A DNA stretch of 63,491 bases, filler included, from a bacterium (lineage in GTDB: Bacteria > UBA9089 > CG2-30-40-21 > SBAY01): assembly GCA_040757115.1 (NCBI GenBank). It is 10 parts of 10 records of this genome, joined end to end, with 100 filler letters (N's around TTAATTAATTAA, not from the genome) between each part and the next. Parts side by side here need not be neighbours in the genome. Positions count along the whole stretch, not along the records: positions 1 to 6,472 come from JBFLYA010000213.1; 9 more parts are not named here. One strand, given 5' to 3'. Below, piece after piece: positions 1 through 12,094 of the stretch (the first letter of the stretch is position 1; every line of letters starts with the position of its first letter). Position numbers and translations under genes: made by a program. Under the pieces are notes generated by a model that worked only from the letters and a program-made list of their open reading frames with translations, had not been told where the DNA came from and did no database searches.

Positions 1-127
1 TTGTTTTCCACAATCAATTTCTACCTATTTCTATAAATTTCAATCTATTTCTATTATCTTATCTCCATATCACTCTTATCTCCTTATCCCCTTTCTTACA
101 CTTTTGATATATAGCTTGAACGGTTAC
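1..127 (-). mobile_element. MITE-A (IS66-type TIR), partial copy at contig start; supplies the last codons and stop of rpe
   Basis: Reverse complement of the first half of the 237-bp element at 7327-7563; ends ...TGAACGGTTAC at 127. Confidence 0.9.
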
Positions 128-767
128 GATTTTTAAGACTTTTTATTGCCTCAACAGGGTCTTGAGCACCATAGACAAAAGAGCCTGCGACTAAAACATT
201 TGCCCCTCGTTTGACGACTTCAGCCCCGGTCTCAAGGTTTATTCCGCCATCTACCTCAAGGTCTAAATTAAGTTTTTTTTGAGTTATAATCTTGTTTAAT
301 TGCTCTATCTTGGGCAAAACATCATTGATAAATCCCTGTCCACTAAAGCCTGGATTAACGGTCATCACCAGGGCAACATCTATCTCTTTTAGAACAGGAT
401 AAATTTTATCCAGTGGGGTTGGCGGATTGATAGATACACCGGCTTTTACTCCCCTATCCTTTATCTTCTGAATATTTAACATCAGGTCATCTGTAACTTC
501 GGCATGAAAGGTGATTAAATCCGCACCAGCATCAATAAACTTATCAATAAATTTATCCGGATTAGTAATCATCAGATGAACATCAAAGAAAAGATTACTC
601 TTTTTGCGAAGATTTGCGACGGCATCTGGTCCAAAGGTAAGATTATCGACAAAATGTCCATCCATAATGTCCCAATGTAACCAATCGGCAACATCTTCTA
701 TTTTTTCTACCTCGCTGGCTAATTGACTGATGTCAGCTGATAATATTGAAGGTGCTATCTTTATCAT
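96..767 (-). CDS. rpe: Ribulose-phosphate 3-epimerase
   Basis: IAPSILSAD, HWDIMDGHFVDNLTFG, DVHLM, MTVNPGFSGQ, EVDGG motifs; ATG at 767 (MIKIAPS) preferred; tail RNRSSYISKV is read from MITE-A. Confidence 0.95.
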   Translation of the reverse strand: MIKIAPSILSADISQLASEVEKIEDVADWLHWDIMDGHFVDNLTFGPDAVANLRKKSNLFFDVHLMITNPDKFIDKFIDAGADLITFHAEVTDDLMLNIQKIKDRGVKAGVSINPPTPLDKIYPVLKEIDVALVMTVNPGFSGQGFINDVLPKIEQLNKIITQKKLNLDLEVDGGINLETGAEVVKRGANVLVAGSFVYGAQDPVEAIKSLKNRNRSSYISKV

Positions 768-777
768 CTTAATCAAA

Positions 778-806
778 ATCATACCATAATTTAATGTTTT
801 TGTCAA
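778..806 (-). promoter_or_regulatory. Sigma70-type promoter for rpe (TTGACA-17-TATGAT, TG extension)
   Basis: Minus strand TTGACA 806-801, 17-nt spacer, TATGAT 783-778. Confidence 0.7.
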
Positions 807-822
807 CCTTTTTGCTAAAATT

Positions 823-945
823 AAAACGAAAGGAAAAACGAAAAAGTTTATAAGAATTAAAAATAACTCTTGACAAATCCCTCTGGATGTAGTATAATAT
901 AATTAGAGGTTTCAAGAGCAATAAAAACGAAACTAAAAACGAAAG
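823..945 (+). promoter_or_regulatory. Two pairs of AAAACGAAA direct repeats (candidate DeoR-family operators)
   Basis: Motif at 823, 835, 924 and 936; 12-bp spacing within each pair; pairs flank the fapA promoter. Confidence 0.55.
870..898 (+). promoter_or_regulatory. Consensus sigma70 promoter TTGACA-17-TATAAT
   Basis: TTGACA 870-875, TATAAT 893-898; AAGGAG SD upstream of ATG 969. Confidence 0.8.
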
Positions 946-968
946 ATAAATTGAAAGGAGTAAGTAAG

Positions 969-2414
969 ATGACACACCAGGTTACTTCAACAAAACCAGA
1001 AGCTTTGACGATAAAAATTACTGAAGATGGGCTAAAGGCTTTTATGACTATTAATTCCAACAATTGCCATCAGCTATCTTTAGACTTAAATTCCATTCTG
1101 CAAAGATTAAATAAACAAGGGATAAAGTTTGGGATAAAAGACCTGGTGATTAAAACTATACTACAAGATAAAATCTATAATCGCTCGATATTAGTTGCCG
1201 AAGGAATCCCACCGCAAGCAGGTAAAGATGCCAGCATTGAATATAAATTTAACAAAAAAGATAAACCAGGGTTATTGGAGGACATAGAAGGAAAAGTGGA
1301 TTTTCGTGAATTAAGATTAATTGATATTGTGCATACAAATGATGTGCTTGCCTCTAAAATCCTTCCTACTCAAGGAACTCCTGGCAAAAAAGTTACAGGT
1401 GAACAAATACCTGTTAAAAAAGGAGAGGATATTAATATCCCGGTTGGTGAAAATACCTGCCTTTCCCATGACAAATTAACACTTTTTTCATCAGCGGATG
1501 GTTATGTATTCTGGGAAGATAGTAGAATTGGTGTCAAGACAACTTATGAAATCCTATCTGATGTTGATATGAATGTCGGAAATATCAATTTTATAGGTCC
1601 GGTTAAGGTCAAAGGAGATGTAAAAGAAGGTTTTTTTGTTAAGGCTAAAGGAGATGTTGAAATTGGCGGCGTGGTAGAAAACGCAACCGTAATCTCTGAA
1701 GGAAATATTACGGTTATGCAAGGAATCATTGGCAGTAAATCTAAAATCGTGTGCGATGGTGATTTAAAATGCAAATTTATCCAGAATGCTAATATTGAGG
1801 TTAAAGGTAATATCATTGTTCATGATGCTATTTTACATAGCGATGTCCATGCGGGAAAAGGTGTTTTTGTCTTAGGTGGAAAAAAAGGGGCGATTATTGG
1901 TGGGAGAATCTCGGCTAAAGAAGAAGTAAATGCTAAAAATATTGGCTCTATCTCCGAGGTTACTACTGAAATCGAAGTCGGTGTTGACCCTCAAATTAGA
2001 CAAGAAATAGATGCATTAGAAGAAAGTTTAACTACGGAAAAAACTCAATTACACCAGGAAAGGTTAAATTACAAAACATTACTTGCTCAAAATAAAACAG
2101 AGTTAGCCGAACAATCATTATCTAAACAAAAGGAATTAGAAGAGGTTATTAAAATGATGCATCATCACTTATATGAATTCAAAAAACATGTCCGTGCTAA
2201 CTATAAAGGTAAGGTATCTGCCTTTGATACACTTTGGCCAGGTGTAAAACTTACTATTGGCAATGCTACAGTTCCACTAAAAATTGATTATCGGTATGTC
2301 ACCTTTTATAATAGCGTCGGCCATATTGAACAGACTGGATATGAAAAACCAAAAATTAAAGTAGAAACACCTACGATTACTTATTGGGAAAGAGAAATTG
2401 ATAAGGTAAAATGA
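969..2414 (+). CDS. FapA/DUF342 family protein
   Basis: VAEGIPPQAGKD, VDFRE, VGNINFIGPVKVKGDV beta-helix repeats, IIGG, EVGVDP followed by coiled coil; ATG 969 has SD. Confidence 0.85.
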   Translation: MTHQVTSTKPEALTIKITEDGLKAFMTINSNNCHQLSLDLNSILQRLNKQGIKFGIKDLVIKTILQDKIYNRSILVAEGIPPQAGKDASIEYKFNKKDKPGLLEDIEGKVDFRELRLIDIVHTNDVLASKILPTQGTPGKKVTGEQIPVKKGEDINIPVGENTCLSHDKLTLFSSADGYVFWEDSRIGVKTTYEILSDVDMNVGNINFIGPVKVKGDVKEGFFVKAKGDVEIGGVVENATVISEGNITVMQGIIGSKSKIVCDGDLKCKFIQNANIEVKGNIIVHDAILHSDVHAGKGVFVLGGKKGAIIGGRISAKEEVNAKNIGSISEVTTEIEVGVDPQIRQEIDALEESLTTEKTQLHQERLNYKTLLAQNKTELAEQSLSKQKELEEVIKMMHHHLYEFKKHVRANYKGKVSAFDTLWPGVKLTIGNATVPLKIDYRYVTFYNSVGHIEQTGYEKPKIKVETPTITYWEREIDKVK

Positions 2415-2532
2415 AGGTTGGGATAAAGTGGCTCACACAGAAGACCTTCGGATAAAAATATCCCAGAACGCAGAAGATAGAAAGTATGGGTAAATTACAA
2501 AAAAGTCTTCACACATATAAAAGGGTACTGAG

Positions 2533-3651
2533 ATGGAAAAATCATCATCTGAAACAAGACGATATGTTATTTTAAAAGAGATTTATAAAAAAAGGGTTGT
2601 CTCTAACGATGATTTAATGGATAAATTTGGAGTTTCGTTAGTAACAATTAGAAAGGATTTAGATGAACTTAAATCACTGGGATTGGTAAATAGGACATTT
2701 GGTGGGGCAGTCCCTATCATGGCAAAGGTAAATGAAGATAATTTGGAAGGTTCTATTGAAGACCGCTCGGAGATAATTGCCATTAGTAAATATATTGTCG
2801 ATAAAAAAGTTATAAAAGATGGTGATATTCTATTTATGGATGGTGGAATAATTATTAATATGCTGGCAAAAAGATTATCTGATAAAAAACCAGGACACAT
2901 CACTGTCATTACAAATGCCGTCAATGTCGCCAATGAACTTGCCTCTAAATCAAATGTTATTCTCACCGGCGGTGACCTGAAAGACACCCAGGGAGTTCTC
3001 TCAGGAAATTTATCTACCCAAACAATTGACCAATATTCAGTTGATGTAGCATTTATAGATGTTGATGGCATATCGTTTAATAGCGGATTATGGGCTAAAG
3101 ATGAAGTTGAGGCTCAGGTTAAAAAGCGAATGATTAAAGGAGCAAAGCAGGTAATAATTATGATCAAACATTCAAAATTAGGTCACGAGGTAGGTCAAGT
3201 GTTTGCAGAATTTTATCTTGAAGAAGGAAATAATCTGAAACTTATGCTCCCGGATTTAAAAGATGAAAAAACAGTGAGATTAGATTTTGTTGATCTACCA
3301 TCTGATTATAAATCATTAGAAAATGACCCTGTTCAAAAGTGGCTTGAAAAGAATTTAAAGGAAAAAGGTATAACCGAACCAATCTGGGTCAAAGAAAAAG
3401 CAGGTGGTAGGTTTGAAATTATTGATGGTAAAAGAAGGTATTTGGCGGCTAAATCACTTGCAGATGAAGGCTCAAGCACCTTTTCTTCCATCCCCATAAA
3501 ATTTGAAAAAGAATCTTGTGTCAAGCGTGATTTCCAGATTATCACCTCGTCAAAATACCTCAAGCAAGATGTGGCAAAGAAACACTTTTTAGCAGAAAAG
3601 AGAAAATTCGAAGAGATAGCCCCAAATACCTTCATTGATATTGCCGATTGA
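2533..3651 (+). CDS. DeoR/GlpR-family regulator with an inserted ParB/Srx-like domain
   Basis: HTH FGVSLVTIRKDL...RTFGGA; DeoRC VITNA, LTGG, AFIDVDGI, HSKLG; insert GITEPIWV...FEIIDGKRRYLAAK. Confidence 0.85.
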   Translation: MEKSSSETRRYVILKEIYKKRVVSNDDLMDKFGVSLVTIRKDLDELKSLGLVNRTFGGAVPIMAKVNEDNLEGSIEDRSEIIAISKYIVDKKVIKDGDILFMDGGIIINMLAKRLSDKKPGHITVITNAVNVANELASKSNVILTGGDLKDTQGVLSGNLSTQTIDQYSVDVAFIDVDGISFNSGLWAKDEVEAQVKKRMIKGAKQVIIMIKHSKLGHEVGQVFAEFYLEEGNNLKLMLPDLKDEKTVRLDFVDLPSDYKSLENDPVQKWLEKNLKEKGITEPIWVKEKAGGRFEIIDGKRRYLAAKSLADEGSSTFSSIPIKFEKESCVKRDFQIITSSKYLKQDVAKKHFLAEKRKFEEIAPNTFIDIAD

Positions 3652-3730
3652 GTAACTGTTCACCGCAGAGACACAGAGAAAAAATTAAAAACTATTTGTA
3701 ACTATTCACCACGAAGAGCACGAAGGGCAG
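3652..3730 (+). repeat. Two nested IS66-type left ends (GTAACTGTTCAC at 3652, GTAACTATTCAC at 3698) with 8-9-nt tandem repeats
   Basis: Same ends as elements at 16666, 12653 and 44257; begins immediately after the deoR stop. Confidence 0.7.
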
Positions 3731-3788
3731 GGAGATGTTACAGAACAAATCTCTTCATGCCTTCTTTCAATCTTTCCACATTGAAATT

Positions 3789-3968
3789 TATAGCACTTAT
3801 TAATCGAAACTTAACATAGAACAGATAGAAATTTGACTATCAATTGAATGAATGTAGAATATCGAATAATGAATTTAGAATAATGAAGTTTTAGTATTAC
3901 TTCTACATTCTACATTCAATATTCAATATTTTTCATTTTATGGAAACTTTTGATTAATAACTACTATA
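3789..3968. mobile_element. TATAGC-type TIR mini-element with internal inverted heptamer repeats
   Basis: TATAGCACTTATTAATCGAAA ... TTTGATTAATAACTACTATA; same family at 6120-6347 and 37247-37470. Confidence 0.7.
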
Positions 3969-4020
3969 TCCCTGAAAGATCAGCTGGTAGGCTGGAGGGC
4001 AATGCCTCCAACCCCCAATC

Positions 4021-5045
4021 ATCGCCAAATTTGTTAGACAACATAACAAATTCTTTTAAACCATACGTCTTTCTCGTAGTTAGCGACCCCGTATAGTTGC
4101 TCTATGGTAGAGAGAAGTTACTATTTATACACAAGCCCTCTTAAACTTTTCCTCCTGGATAGTCTCCGAATTGTCCATTTATCAACCGTGTTTCCCCAGT
4201 TTACCCCTTCTGATACGGCAGAGGTTACCGCTTTTGTTCAGATTATCAGTGGTTATACCTGCTGAGCGTATTAAATGGACATCTTTGGCTATCTCCTATA
4301 CGGTTATGTCCCTTCATCCTGATTTTCTCAAGATTACTATGAACAATGCTGACGACTCTAAAAATGGGTAACCGTTCAGGCTATATATCAAAAGTGTAAG
4401 AAAGAGGATAAGGGCGATATGGAGATAAGATAATAGAAATAGATTGAAATTTATAGAAATAGGTAGAAATTGATTGTGGGAAACAACAAATTTCCATAAA
4501 TTTCTATTAGTTTCTACTAATTTCAATTTTTTTAATAATATCTCCCTATCTCCTTAATCTCCACATCTCCTTTTGTTACCCCACCTGAACGCTTACAAAA
4601 ATGGACATTTGAGAGCTAAACATCCATCACTACCTCATAAAGATTGGATTTCGGATTTCCCTTATACTAATCCCTTAGTCTTAATTAAAAGACAAGATGT
4701 GAGTCCTCCTTTGGTCATATGGATTACCCATTTTCCTTCCGTGATGTATGTTTAAACGCATTACCCAGAGATGCTTTAACCTAACCTATTTATTCATCTC
4801 CGACAAGGACATTGCCAGTGCTTCGCTGAGAAAGGGCAGTTGGCACGAGTTAATACGCCATAATCATACACCCCAATAGGTCATCTGTAATTCGTCACTC
4901 CATCATATCACCTCACGATGATACCCTGTCTTTCTGTAGATACGGATTGCTCCTTTATCTACATAATTACAAACTTCTATACAAGGATTAGGCTTGCATA
5001 GGTGGTTTTCCCAACCACTCTGGTATCCCATACTTCAAAGCACAC
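4021..5045 (-). ncRNA. ORF-less, degenerate group II intron-like RNA interrupted by MITE-A
   Basis: 5' GTGTG at 5045; DIII-like GTCAGCATTGTTCATAGTA...GAAGGGAC (4358-4308); DV-like AACTATAC/AC bulge/GTATGGTT (4098-4059); terminal hairpin then CGAT end at 4021; no RT ORF. Confidence 0.6.
4368..4596 (+). mobile_element. MITE-A, full copy (229 bp), 8-bp TSD AAAAATGG
   Basis: GTAACCGTTCAGG...CCTGAACGCTTAC; AAAAATGG at 4360-4367 and 4597-4604. Confidence 0.95.
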
Positions 5046-5222
5046 CAAATCTCAAAACGCAAAACGCAAAACTACAACGCAAAGCTCAAAACTATTTTTA
5101 TTATGGACTTTCGCCGGTTTTCAAAGAATCCTATATTTTTTGACCTCCGTTCAGAATGGCACTGAATTAGTTTTAAGGTTTTGAGTTTCAGCTTTGAGTT
5201 TTGACATTTGAGTTTTGAGTTG
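5046..5222. repeat. Inverted heptamer tandem-repeat shell (CAAAACG-like / TTTTGAG-like)
   Basis: ctcaaaacgcaaaacgcaaaac ... gttttgagtttcagctttgagttttgac. Confidence 0.7.
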
Positions 5223-5309
5223 ATTTTTGCAAAAATTGCTTACCAAAGAATCACAAATTGTCACCCTAATATAGTATAGGATTGTATGGAGACTATCGTG
5301 TCAATTGAG

Positions 5310-5498
5310 CGAACGCCTTAAGATGAGTGATTATCGGAAAGCCGTGTAAGGGAAAACCTTCGGGTCACCCACGAAGTGGGTCGGGTTTGATGCGGGGGTG
5401 TTGGAGAAGTGCTATAGTGAACCTAAAACAGGCATCGTTGGAAACGATTGAGGCAACCAAAGGAACACCTACGGTAACTCGCCAGTGCTCTACTCTAC
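5310..5498 (+). ncRNA. Group II intron 3' fragment (DV-DVI) with disrupted DV
   Basis: GAAAGCCGTGTAAGGGAAAACCTT...GGTTTGATGCGGGGG...CTCTACTCTAC; 3' arm of DV replaced by an ACCCAC-GAA-GTGGGT hairpin. Confidence 0.75.
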
Positions 5499-5532
5499 TA
5501 AAAAAGGGGTGAAGTTGGGCTAAAAGTAGGAT

Positions 5533-5880
5533 TTACATCTTCTTTTCCCACTTCAGAATCTCTCTTAGAACTCTGACGAGTAAATCAATATGTTGTGGAT
5601 TTATTCTTTCTATTAGTCCTATAATCTCAAAGGTAGAAGATTCTTCTTTACTTACAACTTCTTGGGCAGAAGGAAGAGATAAAAGATCTGTTATCGTCAT
5701 TCCTAAAACAGAAGCAATTTTGTTAAGAACTGTAATGGTAGGATTTACTTCTCCTCTTTCTATTCTCCCAATATATGTTGGATGTAAACCAGCTCTTTCT
5801 GCCAATCTTTCTTGAGATAACCTCATTTCATTCCTTAATCTTTGTATTCTACTTCCTATCTTGATTAACAATTCATTCAT
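5533..5880 (-). CDS. XRE-family HTH transcriptional regulator
   Basis: LSQERLAERAGLHPTYIGRIERGEVNPT. Confidence 0.9.
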   Translation of the reverse strand: MNELLIKIGSRIQRLRNEMRLSQERLAERAGLHPTYIGRIERGEVNPTITVLNKIASVLGMTITDLLSLPSAQEVVSKEESSTFEIIGLIERINPQHIDLLVRVLREILKWEKKM

Positions 5881-6119
5881 TATAATCTATAGCCCTCCAT
5901 TCTTATTTTACTGTGAATATTAAAATGGATTTTTAACTTATTTTTTACGGATAACAACAATTTCCAAATGAAGATAGATCAATTAAGAATTGGCAGTTGA
6001 CAGAGACAAGATATTATGATATTTTACAAAATAAATAGAAGAAGTGAGATTTGATATGCCCAAAGAAAATAGAGCATGAGGGGATGTCTACTTCGGGTAA
6101 ATGGAATATTTGTTCATCT

Positions 6120-6347
6120 TATAGCGGTTATTAACTGGAAGTTTACATAGGATAATACCCATAAATAAGGCATGAGAATAATCGTTCCGTTAGGAACATA
6201 ATATCGGTAGGAATAGATAGACAAATCAATCAGTTCCGTAGGAACGATATATTGGTAGAAAATTTATGGAAAGCCATTTACCGATATATTGTCCCTATGG
6301 GACATTATTTGTATTTCTAAGTAAAGTTTTGAATAATAACTGCTATA
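6120..6347. mobile_element. TATAGC-type TIR element containing REP-like GTTCC-N-GGAAC hairpins
   Basis: TATAGCGGTTATTA ... TAATAACTGCTATA; internal gttccgttaggaac, gttccgtaggaac, gtccctatgggac. Confidence 0.7.
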
Positions 6348-6472
6348 ATTTTACATTTTGATGTTTGATTTTTAATTTATTTTATGGTATTCCAGAAAAG
6401 TGGAAGTTAATTTTGCAAAAACCATAAGCCTCGCACTACAAATCTTTTTATTATTCGTGTTCATTCGTGGTT

Positions 6473-6572
6473 NNNNNNNNNNNNNNNNNNNNNNNNNNNN
6501 NNNNNNNNNNNNNNNNTTAATTAATTAANNNNNNNNNNNNNNNNNNNNNNNNNNNNNNNNNNNNNNNNNNNN
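6473..6572. other. Artificial contig linker (first of nine)
   Basis: N-TTAATTAATTAA-N, 100 nt; also at 12997, 19516, 26018, 32377, 38621, 44864, 51088 and 57302. Confidence 0.99.
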
Positions 6573-6697
6573 GTTTTCCACAATCAATTTCTACCTATTT
6601 CTATAAATTTCAATCTATTTCTATTATCTTATCTCCATATCACTCTTATCTCCTTATCCCCTTTCTTACACTTTTGATATATAGCCTGAACGGTTAC
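6573..6697 (-). mobile_element. MITE-A partial copy at contig start
   Basis: Near-identical to 3-127. Confidence 0.9.
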
Positions 6698-6736
6698 ACA
6701 GATTTGATGGAAATTTATAAAAATTGGAGATAAATA

Positions 6737-7318
6737 ATGTTGCGGGGTGCAATTGCATTATTTTGTTTAATGGTTATTTTGGGGTTAATATTAGTTAATA
6801 GTAATTGGTTTTGGGATACAATTGCCCCGGTTTATTATGAAGACATAGTTTATAAATATGCCGAAAAGTATGACATCGACCCTTTTTTAGCTATGGCTAT
6901 TATCAAAGCTGAATCAAGTTTTTATTCTGGAGCACAATCGCCAAAAGGGGCAATTGGTCTGATGCAAATAATGCCGGCAACGGGTAAAGAAATTGCCTCT
7001 AAATTAAACTTAAGACCATTTGCGGTTTGCGACCTATACGACCCGGAGATAAATATTCAAATTGGATTATATTATTTCGTCAAATTACAAAATAAGTTTA
7101 ATGGAGATATATATTTAACTTTAGCCGCATACAATGGTGGAGCAGAAAATGTAAAAAAATGGCTATCTGAAAAGAAAATGGGAACGATAAAGTCAAAAGC
7201 GGACATTAAAAATATACCATTTAAGGAAACACGAGAATTTGTCCATGATGTTATCTGGAATTACCTGTGGTTTAAAAATATTCATAAAATCAGGAAGGTT
7301 TTACAAATCAAAATATAA
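6737..7318 (+). CDS. SLT-domain lytic transglycosylase
   Basis: IKAESSF, SPKGAIGLMQIMPAT, LAAYNGG, ETREFV; N-terminal TM. Confidence 0.92.
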   Translation: MLRGAIALFCLMVILGLILVNSNWFWDTIAPVYYEDIVYKYAEKYDIDPFLAMAIIKAESSFYSGAQSPKGAIGLMQIMPATGKEIASKLNLRPFAVCDLYDPEINIQIGLYYFVKLQNKFNGDIYLTLAAYNGGAENVKKWLSEKKMGTIKSKADIKNIPFKETREFVHDVIWNYLWFKNIHKIRKVLQIKI

Positions 7319-7326
7319 CTTATTTC

Positions 7327-7563
7327 GTAACCGTTCAGGCTATATATCAAAAGTGTAAGAAAGGGGATAAGGAGATAAGAGTGATATGGAGATAAGATAA
7401 TAGAAATAGATTGAAATTTATAGAAATAGGTAGAAATTGATTGTGGAAAACAACAAATTTCCATAAATTTCTATTAGTTTCTATTAATTTCAATTTTTTT
7501 AATAATATCTCCCTATCTCCTTAATCTCCACATCTCCTTTTGTTACACCACCTGAACGCTTAC
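7327..7563 (+). mobile_element. MITE-A, full copy (237 bp), 8-bp TSD CTTATTTC
   Basis: TIR GTAACCGTTCAGG/CCTGAACGCTTAC; CTTATTTC at 7319-7326 and 7564-7571. Confidence 0.95.
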
Positions 7564-7583
7564 CTTATTTCAAGAATAAAAAA

Positions 7584-8156
7584 ATGACATTAGCCAATAA
7601 AATTACTATTTTAAGAATCTTATTAATTCCGGTTCTTGTTATCTTTTTAGTCTATGGTTACCGAAAAAATCTACTACTTTTTCGCCATATCGCCCTGGGT
7701 ATTTTTATCCTTTCAATGATAACAGATGCCTTAGACGGAATGGTTGCCCGTGCATTTAAACAAAAAACTAATCTTGGAAGTTTATTAGACCCGCTGGCAG
7801 ATAAATTACTTCTGGTAACTACCTTTGGAGTTATAGGATATATTGGAAAAATCTCATTGGGAATAGTAATCCTGGTGATAAGTCGAGAAGTGATTATGAC
7901 ATTAGGGTGGATTATTCTTCATATATTTAGTCCTAATACGATTACGATTAAGCCAAGCATCCTGGGAAAGATAACAACTGCCCTTCAAATGTTGACAATT
8001 ATTTGTTGTCTGATAGAAATTCAATATCCAATTATTATTCGCTGGACGCTTATTACCACTATGGTAATTTTTACTATCGTCTCCACACTTCATTATATCT
8101 TTGTTGGTAGTCAGATGCTTAATGAAGAAGGAAAGGGAAAGAATAAAGGAGATTAA
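7584..8156 (+). CDS. pgsA: CDP-alcohol phosphatidyltransferase (PgsA-like)
   Basis: ANKITILR, TDALDGMVAR...GSLLDPLADK. Confidence 0.85.
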   Translation: MTLANKITILRILLIPVLVIFLVYGYRKNLLLFRHIALGIFILSMITDALDGMVARAFKQKTNLGSLLDPLADKLLLVTTFGVIGYIGKISLGIVILVISREVIMTLGWIILHIFSPNTITIKPSILGKITTALQMLTIICCLIEIQYPIIIRWTLITTMVIFTIVSTLHYIFVGSQMLNEEGKGKNKGD

Positions 8157-8390
8157 CCACGAAGGCACGAAGATACAAAGGAGAATGAAAATAAAGGCTG
8201 AAGGAAACAGCGTTCAAAACTTCAGCCTATATCCTTCAGCCTTCAGCCTATTTTCAGGAGAAACGCTCATGCCCACAGGGAGTGGGCACAAAGGAGGATG
8301 AAAATCGGGCATAGAGATTAGAGATTAGCAAGAGTGCAGGTTCTAATTCACTAATTCTCTAATCTCTAATTAACTATTTTCAGGAGAAAA
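8155..8390 (+). repeat. Tandem ACAAAGGRGRATGAAAAT-(inverted heptamers)-ATTTTCAGGAGAAA units with a central hairpin
   Basis: Core 8250-8305 matches the reverse copy at 19353-19404; final AGGAG lies just upstream of the pilB ATG. Confidence 0.7.
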
Positions 8391-10097
8391 ATGGAAAATA
8401 AACCACGAAAAAAAAGATACTTTTTAGGTGAAATGTTAATAGAGTCAAAGATAATTACCCAAAAACAACTGGATGAAGCAATAGAACTACAATTGAAAAC
8501 AGGTGAGAGAATTGGTAATATCTTAAGAAATTTAGGTTATATAACCGAAAATGACCTTTTAGAAACATTAAGTCAACAATTGGGTATTCCTCGAATTAAT
8601 TTTAGCGATATAGGAGAAATCCCGAGTGAAGTATTAAAATTAATTCCAGAATTTATCATTAGAAGACATAATTTAATTCCTATTTCACTTGCAGACCATA
8701 ATTTAACCATAGCTATGTCTGACCCACTGGATATATTTGCCATAGATGATGTAGCGTTATTTATAGGTGACTATCGCATAACTCCAGTAATTGTCTCTGA
8801 GGATGACATAAGAAAAACTATCGATAAATATTATGGCGGAGAGATAACTTTTGAGAAAACAATAGAGAAAATAGAAGTAAAATCCACTGAGGTTGAAGAG
8901 GAAGTAATGGATGTCAGTAAAGTTACCTCTGCGGCTGAAGAAGCTCCATTAGTTAATCTGGTCAATCGTATTATTTCAAATGCGATTCAAACCGGGGCAT
9001 CAGATATTCATATTGAGCCCTATGAGTATAAACTTCGCGTTCGACAAAGAATTGATGGGATTTTATATGAACTTTCTGCTCCACCTAAAAAATTACTTCT
9101 ACCTATTATCTCTCGTATAAAAATTATGTCCAAGGCTGATATTACTGAACATAGACGACCACAAGATAGTCGAGCAAAGGTTATTGTTGGAAATCGAGAG
9201 GTAGATATGCGAATATCTTTTATTCCGACTATTTTTGGCGAAAGGGTTGCGATTAGAATTTTAGACCCCAAAAGTCTATATTTAGATTTATCTAAACTTG
9301 GTTTTGATGAAGAGTCACTTGCAATTTATCAAAAATATATTAAATCTCCTTATGGAATAGTTCTGGTGACAGGTCCAACTGGAAGTGGTAAGACAACAAC
9401 ACTCTATTCAACATTAGCCACACTTAATTCCGTAGAAAAGAATATTATGACCATAGAAGACCCGGTGGAATATGTTCTTCCGGGTATAAATCAGGAGCAG
9501 GTAAGACCAGACCTTGATGTTACCTTTGCCAGTGGTCTAAGGTCTTTTTTGAGGCAAGATCCGGATATTATTATGGTGGGTGAAATACGAGATAAGGAAA
9601 CAGCAGAAACCGCAGTTCATGCCGCATTAACCGGTCATTTAGTCTTAAGCACACTCCATACAAATGATGCGGTAAGTGCGATACCAAGATTGATTTCAAT
9701 GGACATCGTGCCTTTTCTGGTTTCTTCTTCTTTAATTATGATAATTGCCCAGAGACTATTACGAGTTTTATGTCATAAATGTAAAACACCTTATCAAATG
9801 CCAGGTTCCATACTTACAGAAATGGGATTAAAAGTAGAAGATGGAAATAAGGAAATAACTCTATATCATGGCAAAGGCTGTCCTGCTTGTTTCGATACCG
9901 GCTATCGTGGTCGAATTGGGATATTTGAAGTCTTACCCATAGATGAACACATTAGAAATTTAATCTTTAAATCCGCCTCTATTATTGAAATTAAAGAATA
10001 TGCCTGTAAGATAGGAATGAAACCGTTAAAGGAAGTAGGTTTTAGTCGAGTCTTAGATGGCACGACCAGTTTAGAAGAATATTTAAGGGTGATTTAG
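8391..10097 (+). CDS. pilB: Type IV pilus assembly ATPase (PilB/GspE) with MshEN-like N-terminus
   Basis: LGEML..., GASDIHIEP, GPTGSGKTTT, LRQDPDIIMVGEIRD, CxxC pairs, GYRGRIG. Confidence 0.9.
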   Translation: MENKPRKKRYFLGEMLIESKIITQKQLDEAIELQLKTGERIGNILRNLGYITENDLLETLSQQLGIPRINFSDIGEIPSEVLKLIPEFIIRRHNLIPISLADHNLTIAMSDPLDIFAIDDVALFIGDYRITPVIVSEDDIRKTIDKYYGGEITFEKTIEKIEVKSTEVEEEVMDVSKVTSAAEEAPLVNLVNRIISNAIQTGASDIHIEPYEYKLRVRQRIDGILYELSAPPKKLLLPIISRIKIMSKADITEHRRPQDSRAKVIVGNREVDMRISFIPTIFGERVAIRILDPKSLYLDLSKLGFDEESLAIYQKYIKSPYGIVLVTGPTGSGKTTTLYSTLATLNSVEKNIMTIEDPVEYVLPGINQEQVRPDLDVTFASGLRSFLRQDPDIIMVGEIRDKETAETAVHAALTGHLVLSTLHTNDAVSAIPRLISMDIVPFLVSSSLIMIIAQRLLRVLCHKCKTPYQMPGSILTEMGLKVEDGNKEITLYHGKGCPACFDTGYRGRIGIFEVLPIDEHIRNLIFKSASIIEIKEYACKIGMKPLKEVGFSRVLDGTTSLEEYLRVI

Positions 10098-10160
10098 GAA
10101 TTAGATGTCAAAAGACAAAAGAGAAATATCCGCAGAGGAGATTAACACTAAACTAATAAA

Positions 10161-10553
10161 ATGATTCATGGTATTGGAATTGACATTATTGAAATTAAAA
10201 GAATAAAAAAAACCAAAGAACGATTTGGTAACATATTCTTAACTAAAGTTTTTACTGAATCAGAGATTCGGTATTGCCAGACACATCCTAAAACAGAAGA
10301 CCAACATTTTGCCGGGCGATTTGCGGCTAAAGAGGCAGTGTTAAAGGCATTTGGACTCCGATGGCCTTTTATCTCACTTAAAGATATTGAGATAATCCCT
10401 GATGTGATTACAGGTGCTCCGGAGGTGATTTTATACGGAAATATACTTGGCAAGGCAAATAGACTAAAAATATCATCTATCCTTCTCTCTATCTCTCATA
10501 CGAAAGAATACGCCATTGCCCAAGCAATATGTAATGTTGGAGATAAATTATGA
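10161..10553 (+). CDS. acpS: Holo-ACP synthase
   Basis: GIGIDIIE, FAGRFAAKEA, SISH. Confidence 0.95.
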   Translation: MIHGIGIDIIEIKRIKKTKERFGNIFLTKVFTESEIRYCQTHPKTEDQHFAGRFAAKEAVLKAFGLRWPFISLKDIEIIPDVITGAPEVILYGNILGKANRLKISSILLSISHTKEYAIAQAICNVGDKL

Positions 10554-12094
10554 AAGTCGTATCTAAACAACAAATGCAAGAAATTGATAAAAGAGCCAGT
10601 CTTGAATTCAATATCCCGGGTATTGTTCTTATGGAAAATGCTGGACTTGTATCTTCTTTAATTTTAGAGGAGGATTTTCCGGATTTAAAAAACTCTAAAA
10701 TTGCCATCTTTGTCGGTGGAGGTAATAATGGCGGCGATGGATTGGTTGTTGCCAGACATCTGTTTAATCAAGCGATGGATGTCCAGGTGTATTTGTTAAG
10801 AGAACAGGCTCAGATTAAAGGCGATGCCTTGATTAATTTAAACATAGCAAAATCAATCGGTATTCCCATCAAGGAAATAAATGAATTAGAAAAAGAAAAA
10901 ACTAACATCCTTCAAGCAGATATTATTATTGATGCAATACTGGGCACTGGCATCTCAGGAGAGATAGAAGGTTTTTTAGCAGAGGTCATTAATTTTTTAA
11001 ATGAAACTCAGAAACCAGTTATTGCCCTTGACATTCCATCTGGATTAGATGCAGATACAGGTTTTCCTCTGGGATGTAGTATCCGTGCAAATTCTACTTT
11101 TACCTTCGGATTACCAAAGATTGGATTATTACTTTATCCTGGAGCAGAATTAGTCGGAGAGTTGTCTGTTATTGATATAAGTCTTCCTGAACAACTCCTG
11201 AATGATAAGGAGATTAAAGTAAATTTATTATTAGAGGAGGATATTTTTCCGTTATTGCCACAACGGGCTGAAGATAGCCATAAAGGTTCTTGTGGTAAAG
11301 TCATAGTTATTGCTGGCTCGGTGGGTATGACGGGTGCGGCAACAATGACCGCTCAATCTTCCCTGTTGATGGGTGCAGGATTAGTCATATTAGGTATTCC
11401 CAAAAGCCTGAACCTAATTATTGAGATGAAACTTACGGAAGTGATAACGGTACCTTTACCTGAGACTGATGACCAGATACTGAGTCTGAATAGTTATGAT
11501 AAAATTATGGAATTAATAAAAGATGCCTCTTGTCTCGCCATAGGGCCTGGTCTGGGAAGAAATAATGAGGTTGTAAATTTAATTAAAAAGTTAATTCCAA
11601 AGATAAATATTCCAGTGGTTATAGACGCAGACGGATTATTTGCCTTAGTAAATAATTTACACATATTAAAGAATAAAACCTCACCGGTAGTCATTACTCC
11701 TCATCCGGGAGAAATGGCGCGTCTTTTAGGAATAGGTATCGATGAGGTAAAAAGAAATACATTAACTCTCGCTCGAGAATTTGCCCAAAAATACCAATTA
11801 GTGGTTGTGCTAAAAGGTGCGAGAACAATAGTTGCTGACCCAGAAGGTAATATCTTTATCAATCCCACAGGCAATGAAGGTATGGCAACGGCTGGTTGTG
11901 GAGATGTATTAACCGGAATGATAGCTGGATTATTAGCTCAAAAGGTATTGGCATTAAATGCGGCTAAATTAGGTGTTTTCCTGCATGGCCTGGCTGGAGA
12001 TTTAGTTTTAGAAGAAAAAGGGATGTATAGTTTAGTAGCATCTGACTTGATTCTTAAAATTCCAAAAGCGATTAAACGAGTAGACAATAGATAG
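10550..12094 (+). CDS. nnr: Bifunctional NAD(P)H-hydrate epimerase/dehydratase
   Basis: LMENAG, GGGNNGGDG, DIPSG, HKG, GPGLG, DADG, TPHPGE, ATAGCGDVL. Confidence 0.95.
   Translation: MKVVSKQQMQEIDKRASLEFNIPGIVLMENAGLVSSLILEEDFPDLKNSKIAIFVGGGNNGGDGLVVARHLFNQAMDVQVYLLREQAQIKGDALINLNIAKSIGIPIKEINELEKEKTNILQADIIIDAILGTGISGEIEGFLAEVINFLNETQKPVIALDIPSGLDADTGFPLGCSIRANSTFTFGLPKIGLLLYPGAELVGELSVIDISLPEQLLNDKEIKVNLLLEEDIFPLLPQRAEDSHKGSCGKVIVIAGSVGMTGAATMTAQSSLLMGAGLVILGIPKSLNLIIEMKLTEVITVPLPETDDQILSLNSYDKIMELIKDASCLAIGPGLGRNNEVVNLIKKLIPKINIPVVIDADGLFALVNNLHILKNKTSPVVITPHPGEMARLLGIGIDEVKRNTLTLAREFAQKYQLVVVLKGARTIVADPEGNIFINPTGNEGMATAGCGDVLTGMIAGLLAQKVLALNAAKLGVFLHGLAGDLVLEEKGMYSLVASDLILKIPKAIKRVDNR

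Follow-up and report, generated by a model that had tools for sequence, protein, structure and literature searches.

A DeoR-family regulator with a predicted ParB/sulfiredoxin-fold domain inserted in its sensor domain, found in one family of groundwater Nitrospirota

The window analysed here is a stretch of 63,491 nucleotides made of joined contigs of one bacterial genome (assembly GCA_040757115.1, G000 below). Positions 1-6472 are the contig carrying the regulator gene described in this work (G000:C128), followed by a run of N and then by other contigs, so that genes past 6472 are not neighbours of the regulator. The gene, at 2533..3651 on the plus strand, encodes a DeoR-family protein in whose sensor domain (DeoRC) a domain of about 90 residues, with the predicted fold of ParB and sulfiredoxin (ParB/Srx), is very probably inserted just before the last helix-strand unit. 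This architecture was found only in one family of groundwater Nitrospirota, among the genomes and the 1.84 billion protein representatives searched, and the inserted segment is under purifying selection. The gene is laid out as follows:

2533..3651, plus strand: deoR::parB-like regulator gene, ATG start, 372 amino acids and stop
2557..2712, plus strand: HTH_DeoR winged-helix DNA-binding domain, residues 9-60, Pfam PF08220
2758..3255, plus strand: first part of the DeoRC sensor/oligomerisation domain, residues 76-241, with altered effector-site positions I81, I106, I107 and K212
2839..2853, plus strand: DGGII loop replacing the canonical D-[AS]-G-[TS]-[TS], residues 103-107, alignment A2
3256..3519, plus strand: predicted inserted ParB/Srx-fold domain, residues 242-329, with the core Pfam match at residues 271-309 (nt 3343-3459)
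3427..3438, plus strand: GKRR, corresponding to Box II or the P motif (GxxR) of the ParB-CTPase fold, residues 299-302
3520..3648, plus strand: C-terminal tail (strand, helix, strand) completing the DeoRC fold in the AlphaFold2 model, residues 330-372

Architecture, fold and distribution of the regulator

A word-indexed search of 5.8 billion proteins with the regulator (E <= 0.001) returned 35 matches. Full-length matches, counting the window's own protein, numbered eleven (71-100% identity, 372-385 amino acids) and are referred to as the clade; the other 24 were ordinary DeoR proteins of 247-295 amino acids, covering 46-65% of the query. When residues 225-372 were compared by phmmer with 1.84 billion representatives at 50% identity, a single clade cluster was recovered (E 2.4e-53), followed by 19 weak matches (E 2e-8 to 1e-3). 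Strong matches to residues 240-372 were present in all six genomes of the window's family (four genera; G000 to G005) and in none of six sister-family genomes, and 49 other genomes gave no strong match and at most weak matches to ordinary ParB genes. No insert-free orthologue was detected, the DeoR part (residues 1-241) having no match at E <= 0.001 in four sister-family genomes and one further genome of the phylum. The regulator is the sole DeoRC gene of its genome, in which a canonical ParB (118 bits) is encoded separately, on a different contig.

Within the clade, all-pairs identity is 76% for the insert, 82% for DeoRC and 90% for the helix-turn-helix (HTH) domain, the most conserved part. 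The ratio of non-synonymous to synonymous substitution rates (dN/dS) was 0.095-0.256 for the insert (10 pairs from five genes), 0.01-0.13 for the HTH and about 0.07-0.12 for the tail. The values for the insert, together with its 76% identity, indicate that it is a maintained part of the protein. A chance open reading frame (ORF) or a chimera was also considered and was rejected, given the dN/dS of the insert and the presence of the architecture in 11 clusters over 100% of their length and in six of six family genomes.

The sequence-only reading had described the protein as a DeoR regulator with a ParB/Srx-like domain inserted in its sensor, and the three profiles that this implies were all matched above their Pfam cut-offs: HTH_DeoR (PF08220, residues 9-60, E 1.5e-12, 47.5 bits versus 21), DeoRC (PF00455, residues 92-221 on profile positions 15-144 of 160, E 1.2e-32, 113.5 bits versus 31.8) and ParB_N (residues 271-309, E 5.7e-6, 26.7 bits versus 26.3 with the whole protein and 28.3 bits with the C-terminal part alone). 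HTH_DeoR was present in 11/11 clade members, and ParB_N was matched in the same number at E <= 0.01. The sequence strings by which the architecture had been recognised are all in the ORF, namely HSKLG (residues 213-217), FAEF (224-227), LKEKGITEPIWV (275-286), RFEIIDGKRRYLAAK (293-307) and DFQIITS (333-339). Alignment by hhalign with canonical DeoRs covered residues 7-227 (probability 100). The best NCBIfam models were GlpR (E 6e-41) and AgaR (E 3e-35), and the full-length DeoR-family models of that database (GlpR, AgaR, SrlR, UlaR and others) ceased to align near residues 217-227. Since all equivalog scores were far under their cut-offs (best 140.7 bits versus 300), the regulator is not orthologous to any named member of the family. 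The whole protein gave no usable match in the ESM Atlas, and phmmer of the whole regulator against the PDB sequences returned Noc only (E 0.003) and no DeoR chain, so that the link of the regulator to DeoR entries of the PDB is a structural one.

The full-length AlphaFold2 model (alignment A2; mean predicted local distance difference test, pLDDT, 68.6) is confident over residues 1-241, falls to block means of 33-46 over residues 242-328 and returns to block means of 71-87 over residues 330-372, where the tail is modelled as a strand (330-338), a helix (348-362) and a strand (367-369). After removal of the low-confidence stretch, the model was aligned with the C-domain of Escherichia coli DeoR (7l6l_D) over 178/180 residues, model 72..369 to chain 73..252 (Z 21.6, root-mean-square deviation, rmsd, 2.1). 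Because residues 72-241 amount to only 170 residues, against 178 aligned, part of the tail is needed in this alignment. The last 43 residues complete the DeoRC fold in the model, which argues for a true insertion and not a terminal fusion, and the earlier claim that DeoRC resumes after the insert agrees with both the confident tail and the alignment to 7l6l_D. The existence of an insert of about 100 residues after FAEF was likewise borne out; its exact borders, however, are ambiguous (228-331, or 242 to about 329/345), because two segments resemble the canonical '..liTD' strand. MAFFT aligned LKLMLPD (234-241) with that strand, D241 falling on the canonical D of 15/16 ordinary DeoRs, and DFQIITS (333-339), followed by a helix and a strand, is also like the canonical end ('DLIITD'). 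In either register of the model, the insert precedes the terminal helix-strand unit.

The topology could instead be an artefact of a plain C-terminal ParB-like fusion followed by an unrelated tail, the DeoRC domain then being without its last elements. Such a fusion would fit the alignment of LKLMLPD and D241 with the canonical strand, and the tail is not recognised as DeoR by any sequence profile: neither the tail nor residues 214-246 were matched in Pfam and NCBIfam scans, and when the tail or the mid piece was aligned by hhalign with 13 canonical DeoRs, nothing significant emerged (probability 1-15%). It would not explain the confidence with which the tail is modelled, nor its canonical order of strand (DFQIITS), helix and strand, nor an alignment to residues 73-252 of 7l6l that residues 72-241 alone cannot reach, and the low dN/dS of the tail also speaks against it; we regard a fusion as improbable. 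The failure of the profiles on the tail nevertheless weighs against the insertion, as do several properties of the evidence for it. The insertion topology and the fold of the insert both rest on AlphaFold models, and the completeness of the DeoRC fold depends on the placement of residues 330-372. The ParB_N score is just 0.4 bits over the cut-off and spans 39 residues, and the insert has a pLDDT below 50 in the full-length model. The separate model of the insert described below was built from a ParB_N alignment, so that fold and sequence evidence are not independent.

The identity of the insert was approached through its sequence relatives and through a separate model. Of the 19 non-clade matches to residues 225-372, 16 have ParB_N and one has HTH_ParB without it; the remaining two, also without ParB_N, are repeat-rich. 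The closest PDB sequence matches were Noc (E 0.002, 37 residues around GRFEII.G.RR), Spo0J, SbnI (61 residues) and ParB. Among Atlas clusters, those nearest to residues 240-345 by protein-language-model features (score 0.95) bore the names 'ParB N-terminal domain-containing protein' or 'ParB/Sulfiredoxin domain'. Residues 240-332 were aligned with the clade and 17 ParB-type matches (alignment A3, 28 rows), and the AlphaFold2 model based on A3 (pLDDT 78) has the order strand-helix-strand-strand-helix-helix-strand. Foldseek of this model against the PDB gave 31 matches at E <= 0.001 (best 6.9e-6, template modelling score 0.71-0.73, rmsd about 2 Angstrom), which were ParB, Noc, KorB, SbnI, PadC, sulfiredoxin and serine kinase. 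In a Foldseek-independent comparison (VIA, 48,161 PDB chains), the top 10 all belonged to the ParB/Srx superfamily: Srx 6ky4 (Z 11.0, 80 of 89 residues), free serine kinase (SerK) 5x0b (10.1), KorB (9.8), SbnI (9.7), PadC (9.3), human Srx (8.3), Atu1540 (7.7), pNOB8 ParB-N (7.5), Spo0J (5.7) and Osa (5.6). Below them came one unrelated row at Z 5.1 and the rest at about Z 3. The strand-helix-strand-strand-helix-strand core of the model superposes on the solved members. Profile, language-model features and model structure comparison are thus in accord with the ParB/Srx assignment made earlier, and by predicted fold and by its GxxR motif the insert is a member of this superfamily. A side observation concerns its nearest non-clade relative (P0036, 390 amino acids), in which ParB_N (26-124) is fused to an iron-containing alcohol dehydrogenase C-terminal domain (PF25137, E 3e-38), an unusual fusion.

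Old effector pocket and putative new ligand site

Columns conserved in >= 80% of 16 ordinary DeoRs were compared with the 11 clade members. The two threonines of the canonical loop (T in 14/16 and T in 15/16 ordinary DeoRs) are represented in the clade by I at residue 106 (11/11) and by I (6/11) or T (5/11) at residue 107. Residue 81, a Lys in 16/16 ordinary DeoRs, is I, R, T or M in the clade, and residue 212, an Asp in 15/16, is K, H, Q or G. Because two of the changed positions vary within the clade, constraint at the pocket looks relaxed. The DGGII loop had been pointed out from the sequence and is found at the place given for it, residues 103-107 (nt 2839-2853), with DGGI[IT] in 11/11 members. 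Judged by sequence, the regulator belongs to the DeoR family in both of its domains and is orthologous to none of the named members; it does not match the effector-site signature (the D-x-G-[ST]-[ST] loop, a K behind the linker, and D-x-S-K-x-G), of which S214, K215 and G217 are kept. By analogy with the related RpiA/DeoR folds, the changed positions would be contacts to the effector phosphate. The suggestion that the sugar-phosphate site has degenerated holds fairly well for the phosphate site, where four conserved positions are lost or changed, while part of the cavity may survive.

The insert, for its part, has elements of a nucleotide site. The GxRR motif named in the sequence-only reading is present as GKRR (GK[RK]R in 11/11 clade members, GKKR in 2/11), and its G299 and R302 are, like G279, invariant in the 28 rows of A3. 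At the position of Box I lies a helix of 12-13 residues (266-278; DSSP), followed by the loop GITEP. The E of the ParB motif GERR is K300 in the regulator. There is no Box III (the ENxxR-type P motif): the chain exits the fold behind SIPIKFE (residues 319-325), where aligned ParB relatives run on with an N..R segment. The Pfam scan of the regulator at E <= 10 revealed no HTH_ParB, no ParB C-terminal dimerisation domain and no other ParB domain. When two copies of the insert (residues 240-332, A3) were submitted to complex prediction, the scores were 0.19 and 0.02 versus a mark of 0.42, which counts neither for nor against such a complex.

A 2025 survey of the ParB-CTPase fold (PMC12704722) is the background for these motifs. 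There, Box I is a helix and loop touching the base and Box II is GxxR, with Box III as the third motif. An R-to-A change in GxxR abolishes binding of nucleoside triphosphate (NTP), and GxxR is needed for such binding across diverse ParB-fold proteins; non-canonical members are often without Box III, and the binders may prefer CTP, ATP or GTP (PMC12704722). Nucleotide binding by the predicted site of the insert is plausible on these grounds, and ParB-like hydrolysis and clamp closure are unlikely. As Box III, the ParB HTH and the dimerisation domain are missing, the regulator does not appear to be a ParB-type CTPase clamp. The spreading repressor that had been considered from the sequence also found no counterpart in the candidate operator, which consists of four direct repeats at one promoter and not of a parS-like palindrome.

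Operon, promoter and candidate operator boxes

The regulator gene lies downstream of a gene of the FapA/DUF342 family (Pfam FapA_N E 3.8e-45, FapA E 7.6e-70), behind a promoter flanked by two pairs of candidate boxes:

823..844, plus strand: boxes 1 and 2, AAAACGAAAG / AAAACGAAAA, direct repeats in tandem (period 12 nt); the pair ends 26 nt before the -35 hexamer
870..898, plus strand: sigma-70-type promoter TTGACA-17-TATAAT of the fapA / deoR::parB operon, 12/12 consensus matches
924..945, plus strand: boxes 3 and 4, AAAACGAAAC / AAAACGAAAG, oriented and spaced as boxes 1 and 2 (period 12 nt), lying between -10 and the ribosome-binding site in the 5' leader
951..2414, plus strand: FapA/DUF342 paralogue, first gene of the operon, with the probable true start at ATG 969 and an AAGGAG ribosome-binding site at 955-960

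The exact pattern AACGAAA-N5-AACGAAA was found in the 4.3-Mb genome only at the 823-844 pair and at 926-944, and shuffles of the window expect 0.02 of it. With one mismatch allowed there were two more in the genome, against 13 for the reversed control pattern, and pairs of AACGAAA at any spacing of 0-30 numbered 5, versus 16 for the reversed control. In G001, G002, G003 and G004, too, the two exact pairs of the genome are those at the fapA promoter, while G005 has one exact pair there and a second with substitutions. Alignment of the six promoters shows little or no change in the boxes and in the -35 and -10 hexamers, with boxes 1 and 2, the -35 and the extended -10 unchanged in 6/6, whereas the spacers vary; the distance from pair to pair is 101, 101, 101, 99 and 90 nt in G000, G001, G002, G004 and G003, respectively. 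Because this paired cis-element was found nowhere else in the genome, a dedicated local regulator is indicated; the operon encodes no regulator other than the protein described here, nor does the genome encode another DeoR-family protein. We infer from these data autoregulation through the four candidate boxes. The boxes may resemble the core of the AgaR operator, which is similar to TTTCGTTT. The genome-wide search for AACGAAA pairs gave no sign of further regulon targets, except for two pairs with an 11-nt period (G000:C423:16049-16066, minus strand, and G000:C432:9769-9786, minus strand), which may be further targets or chance. The fapA-regulator spacer of G002 (228 nt; L003 1798-2024) holds, on the minus strand, three tandem CACGAAAG units with an 8-nt period and, on the plus strand, two ACGAAAA-like boxes, an echo of the core of the promoter boxes; these may be extra operator copies.

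The fapA orthologue is directly upstream of the regulator and on the same strand in five of the six family genomes (G000, G001, G002, G004 and G005), at a distance of 33-228 nt; in the window, the gap contains no terminator-like site. In G003 it lies on another contig, followed by one ORF and a simple repeat like that which starts the contig of the regulator. It is under the box-flanked promoter in 6/6 genomes. This fapA is a family-specific paralogue, its orthologues being 61-96% identical and the next paralogues at most 52%. The FapA/DUF342 family is strongly expanded in the phylum: G000 has 11 matches, the 24 other genomes searched have 3-12 each, and some matches lie in open frames of 1,000-2,100 amino acids with several tandem FapA units.

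Other neighbours (rpe, a regulator of the XRE type and, in G001, radical-SAM genes) are not conserved across genera. Downstream of the regulator, about 1.9 kb of the window (3652-5532) hold no ORF above 70 amino acids, and Rfam gave nothing in 1-12000 at gathering thresholds or in 3600-5600 at E <= 0.1. A similar ORF-poor gap of about 2 kb occurs in G001, of the same genus, whereas carB directly follows the regulator in G004. The XRE-type HTH regulator (115 amino acids, 5533-5880, minus strand, HTH_3 E 7e-17) comes after the gap in the window and also in G001. An interspersed repeat of about 237 nt is present in the window at 4360-4596 and 7327-7563 and, inverted, at 6573-6705. It is a high-copy element like a miniature inverted-repeat transposable element; the 4.3-Mb genome holds at least 41 matches to it (91-100% identity; 456 first-look candidates), and some copies lie near contig ends.

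Proposed mechanism, alternatives and relation to known systems

The best explanation of the data as a whole, which we put forward tentatively, is a local DeoR autorepressor with a decayed sugar-phosphate pocket, in which the insert has become the new input, probably for a nucleotide. As a dimer of dimers, the regulator would bind the four AAAACGAAAG-type boxes, one pair lying upstream of the -35 and the other 90-101 bp away in the leader, and would repress its own fapA-deoR::parB operon by occlusion or looping, in the manner of DeoR/GlpR/AgaR-type repressors with repeated operators. The ancestral sugar-phosphate pocket would no longer work, and the inserted domain would act as a new signal-input module, in which GKRR and the GITEP loop most likely bind an NTP or some other phosphorylated compound. 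The ligand may then shift the geometry or the oligomeric state of the DeoRC core, acting allosterically beside the splice strand, and repression would be relieved or tightened; sliding or spreading on DNA, as in ParB, is not expected. A more specific version, in which the repressor reads the pool of cytidine or adenosine triphosphate (CTP or ATP) and couples expression of the lineage-specific FapA/DUF342 scaffold to it through an NTP-controlled loop over the four boxes, seems to us rather doubtful. As far as its function can be deduced, nothing yet indicates a behaviour unlike that of an ordinary repressor.

Several observations weigh against this functional proposal. The clade keeps a number of DeoRC signature residues (D103, G105, T127, G146, G147, G158, S214, K215, G217 and D241), and a modified small-molecule pocket may therefore still function. 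In the survey cited above, 17/28 purified ParB-fold proteins bound no NTP under the conditions used, so that GxxR is no guarantee of a nucleotide (PMC12704722). The boxes may be those of another regulator. Conservation within the clade tells little about single residues, as the clade is shallow (>= 71% identity). The search of sequencing runs for the locus led to DNA runs of one groundwater metagenome study, one of which may be the source of the sequence, and to no RNA run.

The insert might alternatively be a nucleotide-independent protein-protein module, either an oligomerisation surface between DNA-bound dimers or a docking site for a partner such as FapA/DUF342, which would then be a co-repressor or an anti-repressor. 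The linkage of FapA in 5/6 genomes and its box-flanked promoter in 6/6 are in favour of such a role, and so are the absence of Box III, the K300 in place of E, the proportion of surveyed proteins that bound no NTP, and the presence of PadC, a ParB-like adaptor, among the structural matches (Z 9.3). Purifying selection on the GxxR and on the Box I-like helix and loop is, however, easier to explain by a ligand site, and the partner is only hypothetical; we consider a protein-protein module unlikely, though not strongly so. A catalytic insert, with an ATP-dependent phosphotransferase of the Srx, SerK or SbnI type making the protein bifunctional like SbnI, is suggested by the top structural matches (sulfiredoxin, SerK and SbnI), by the PDB sequence alignment to SbnI, the longest obtained (61 residues), by a weak NCBIfam match to SbnI (E 0.004) and by a shared D-G-x-x-R motif (IDGKRR here, IDGVHR in SbnI). 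The 'HE' dipeptide that follows the first strand of SbnI, the Glu of which is catalytic in SbnI and SerK, faces Y259-K260 here, and the position is K, Q or E within the clade. The catalytic Cys of Srx lies in its GCHR motif, whereas GKRR lacks it, and no substrate-related genes are nearby. Catalysis appears to us a poor candidate. Poorer still, and very improbable, is CTP-gated clamp loading at a site with spreading along the DNA to silence neighbouring genes, as in ParB. It could draw on the fold with its GxxR, on KorB, a transcriptional repressor solved in a CTP-related complex (8qa8) that is among the matches, and on VirB, which is a CTP-dependent regulator on the ParB fold (PMC10770331). 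Set within another fold and only about 90 residues long, the domain is nevertheless without the helices that follow the fold in ParB, as well as without Box III, HTH_ParB and the C-terminal dimerisation domain; the operator has no parS-like palindrome, and the genome has its own canonical ParB elsewhere.

The regulator resembles DeoR/GlpR/AgaR-type repressors in its N-terminal HTH_DeoR, in the modelled DeoRC fold (Z 21.6 to 7l6l), in a length of about 250 amino acids when the insert is subtracted, and in the position of its gene beside the probable target, with repeated operator boxes around the promoter. It differs from them in the foreign domain of about 90 residues inside DeoRC, in the loss of four conserved positions, and in having a FapA/DUF342 gene and not a sugar catabolic operon as its neighbour. 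With the ParB-CTPase fold proteins (ParB, Noc, KorB, VirB and PadC) it shares the predicted fold, the GxxR of Box II and a Box I-like helix with the GITEP loop; unlike them, it has no Box III, ParB HTH, dimerisation domain or adjacent ParA, has K for the E of GERR, and carries the fold inserted in another domain, whereas theirs is N-terminal. SbnI of Staphylococcus, annotated both as a transcriptional regulator and as an O-phospho-L-serine synthase, likewise joins a ParB/Srx fold to transcription control, but its fold is N-terminal and followed by a C-terminal domain of its own, DeoR parts are absent, and the position facing its 'HE' is not conserved in the clade. Sulfiredoxin and the free serine kinase are the closest structural matches over nearly the whole insert, which is Srx-sized and stops before Box III; they are, however, stand-alone enzymes or enzyme domains, and the Cys of GCHR is not in the insert. 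KorB and VirB show that a ParB fold can gate transcription factors with CTP, and these two and SbnI are the nearest functional analogies, none of which has the fold inserted into another sensor domain. The text of the 2025 survey is without the term 'DeoR', and its six supplementary files are without 'DeoR', 'DeoRC', PF00455 and PF08220 (PMC12704722). Within that text and those files, to which the literature search was limited, no description of a DeoR protein with an inserted ParB/Srx domain was found.

The ParB-CTPase fold has lately come to be seen as a widely reused NTP-binding module, with end-to-end fusion as the reported form of reuse (PMC12704722). The regulator described here belongs to a classical type of small-molecule-sensing repressor, and the fold appears to lie inside its effector domain, the original pocket of which has decayed. 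This points to the conversion of an old sugar-phosphate sensor into one for a different signal. Should the insert be a structural add-on only, the protein, found in a single uncultured family, would be a lineage-specific curiosity. A nucleotide-binding insert would make the regulator a natural case of sensor replacement by domain insertion and would offer a compact, transplantable NTP-responsive module for DeoR-type regulators; and if it acts as an NTP switch, it would be the first ParB-fold switch to serve as an inserted allosteric module in the effector domain of another regulator. The system looks tractable, comprising one regulator, one promoter and four boxes with a paired pattern otherwise absent from the genome, and it would give a first regulatory handle on one member of the expanded and poorly understood FapA/DUF342 family in Nitrospirota.

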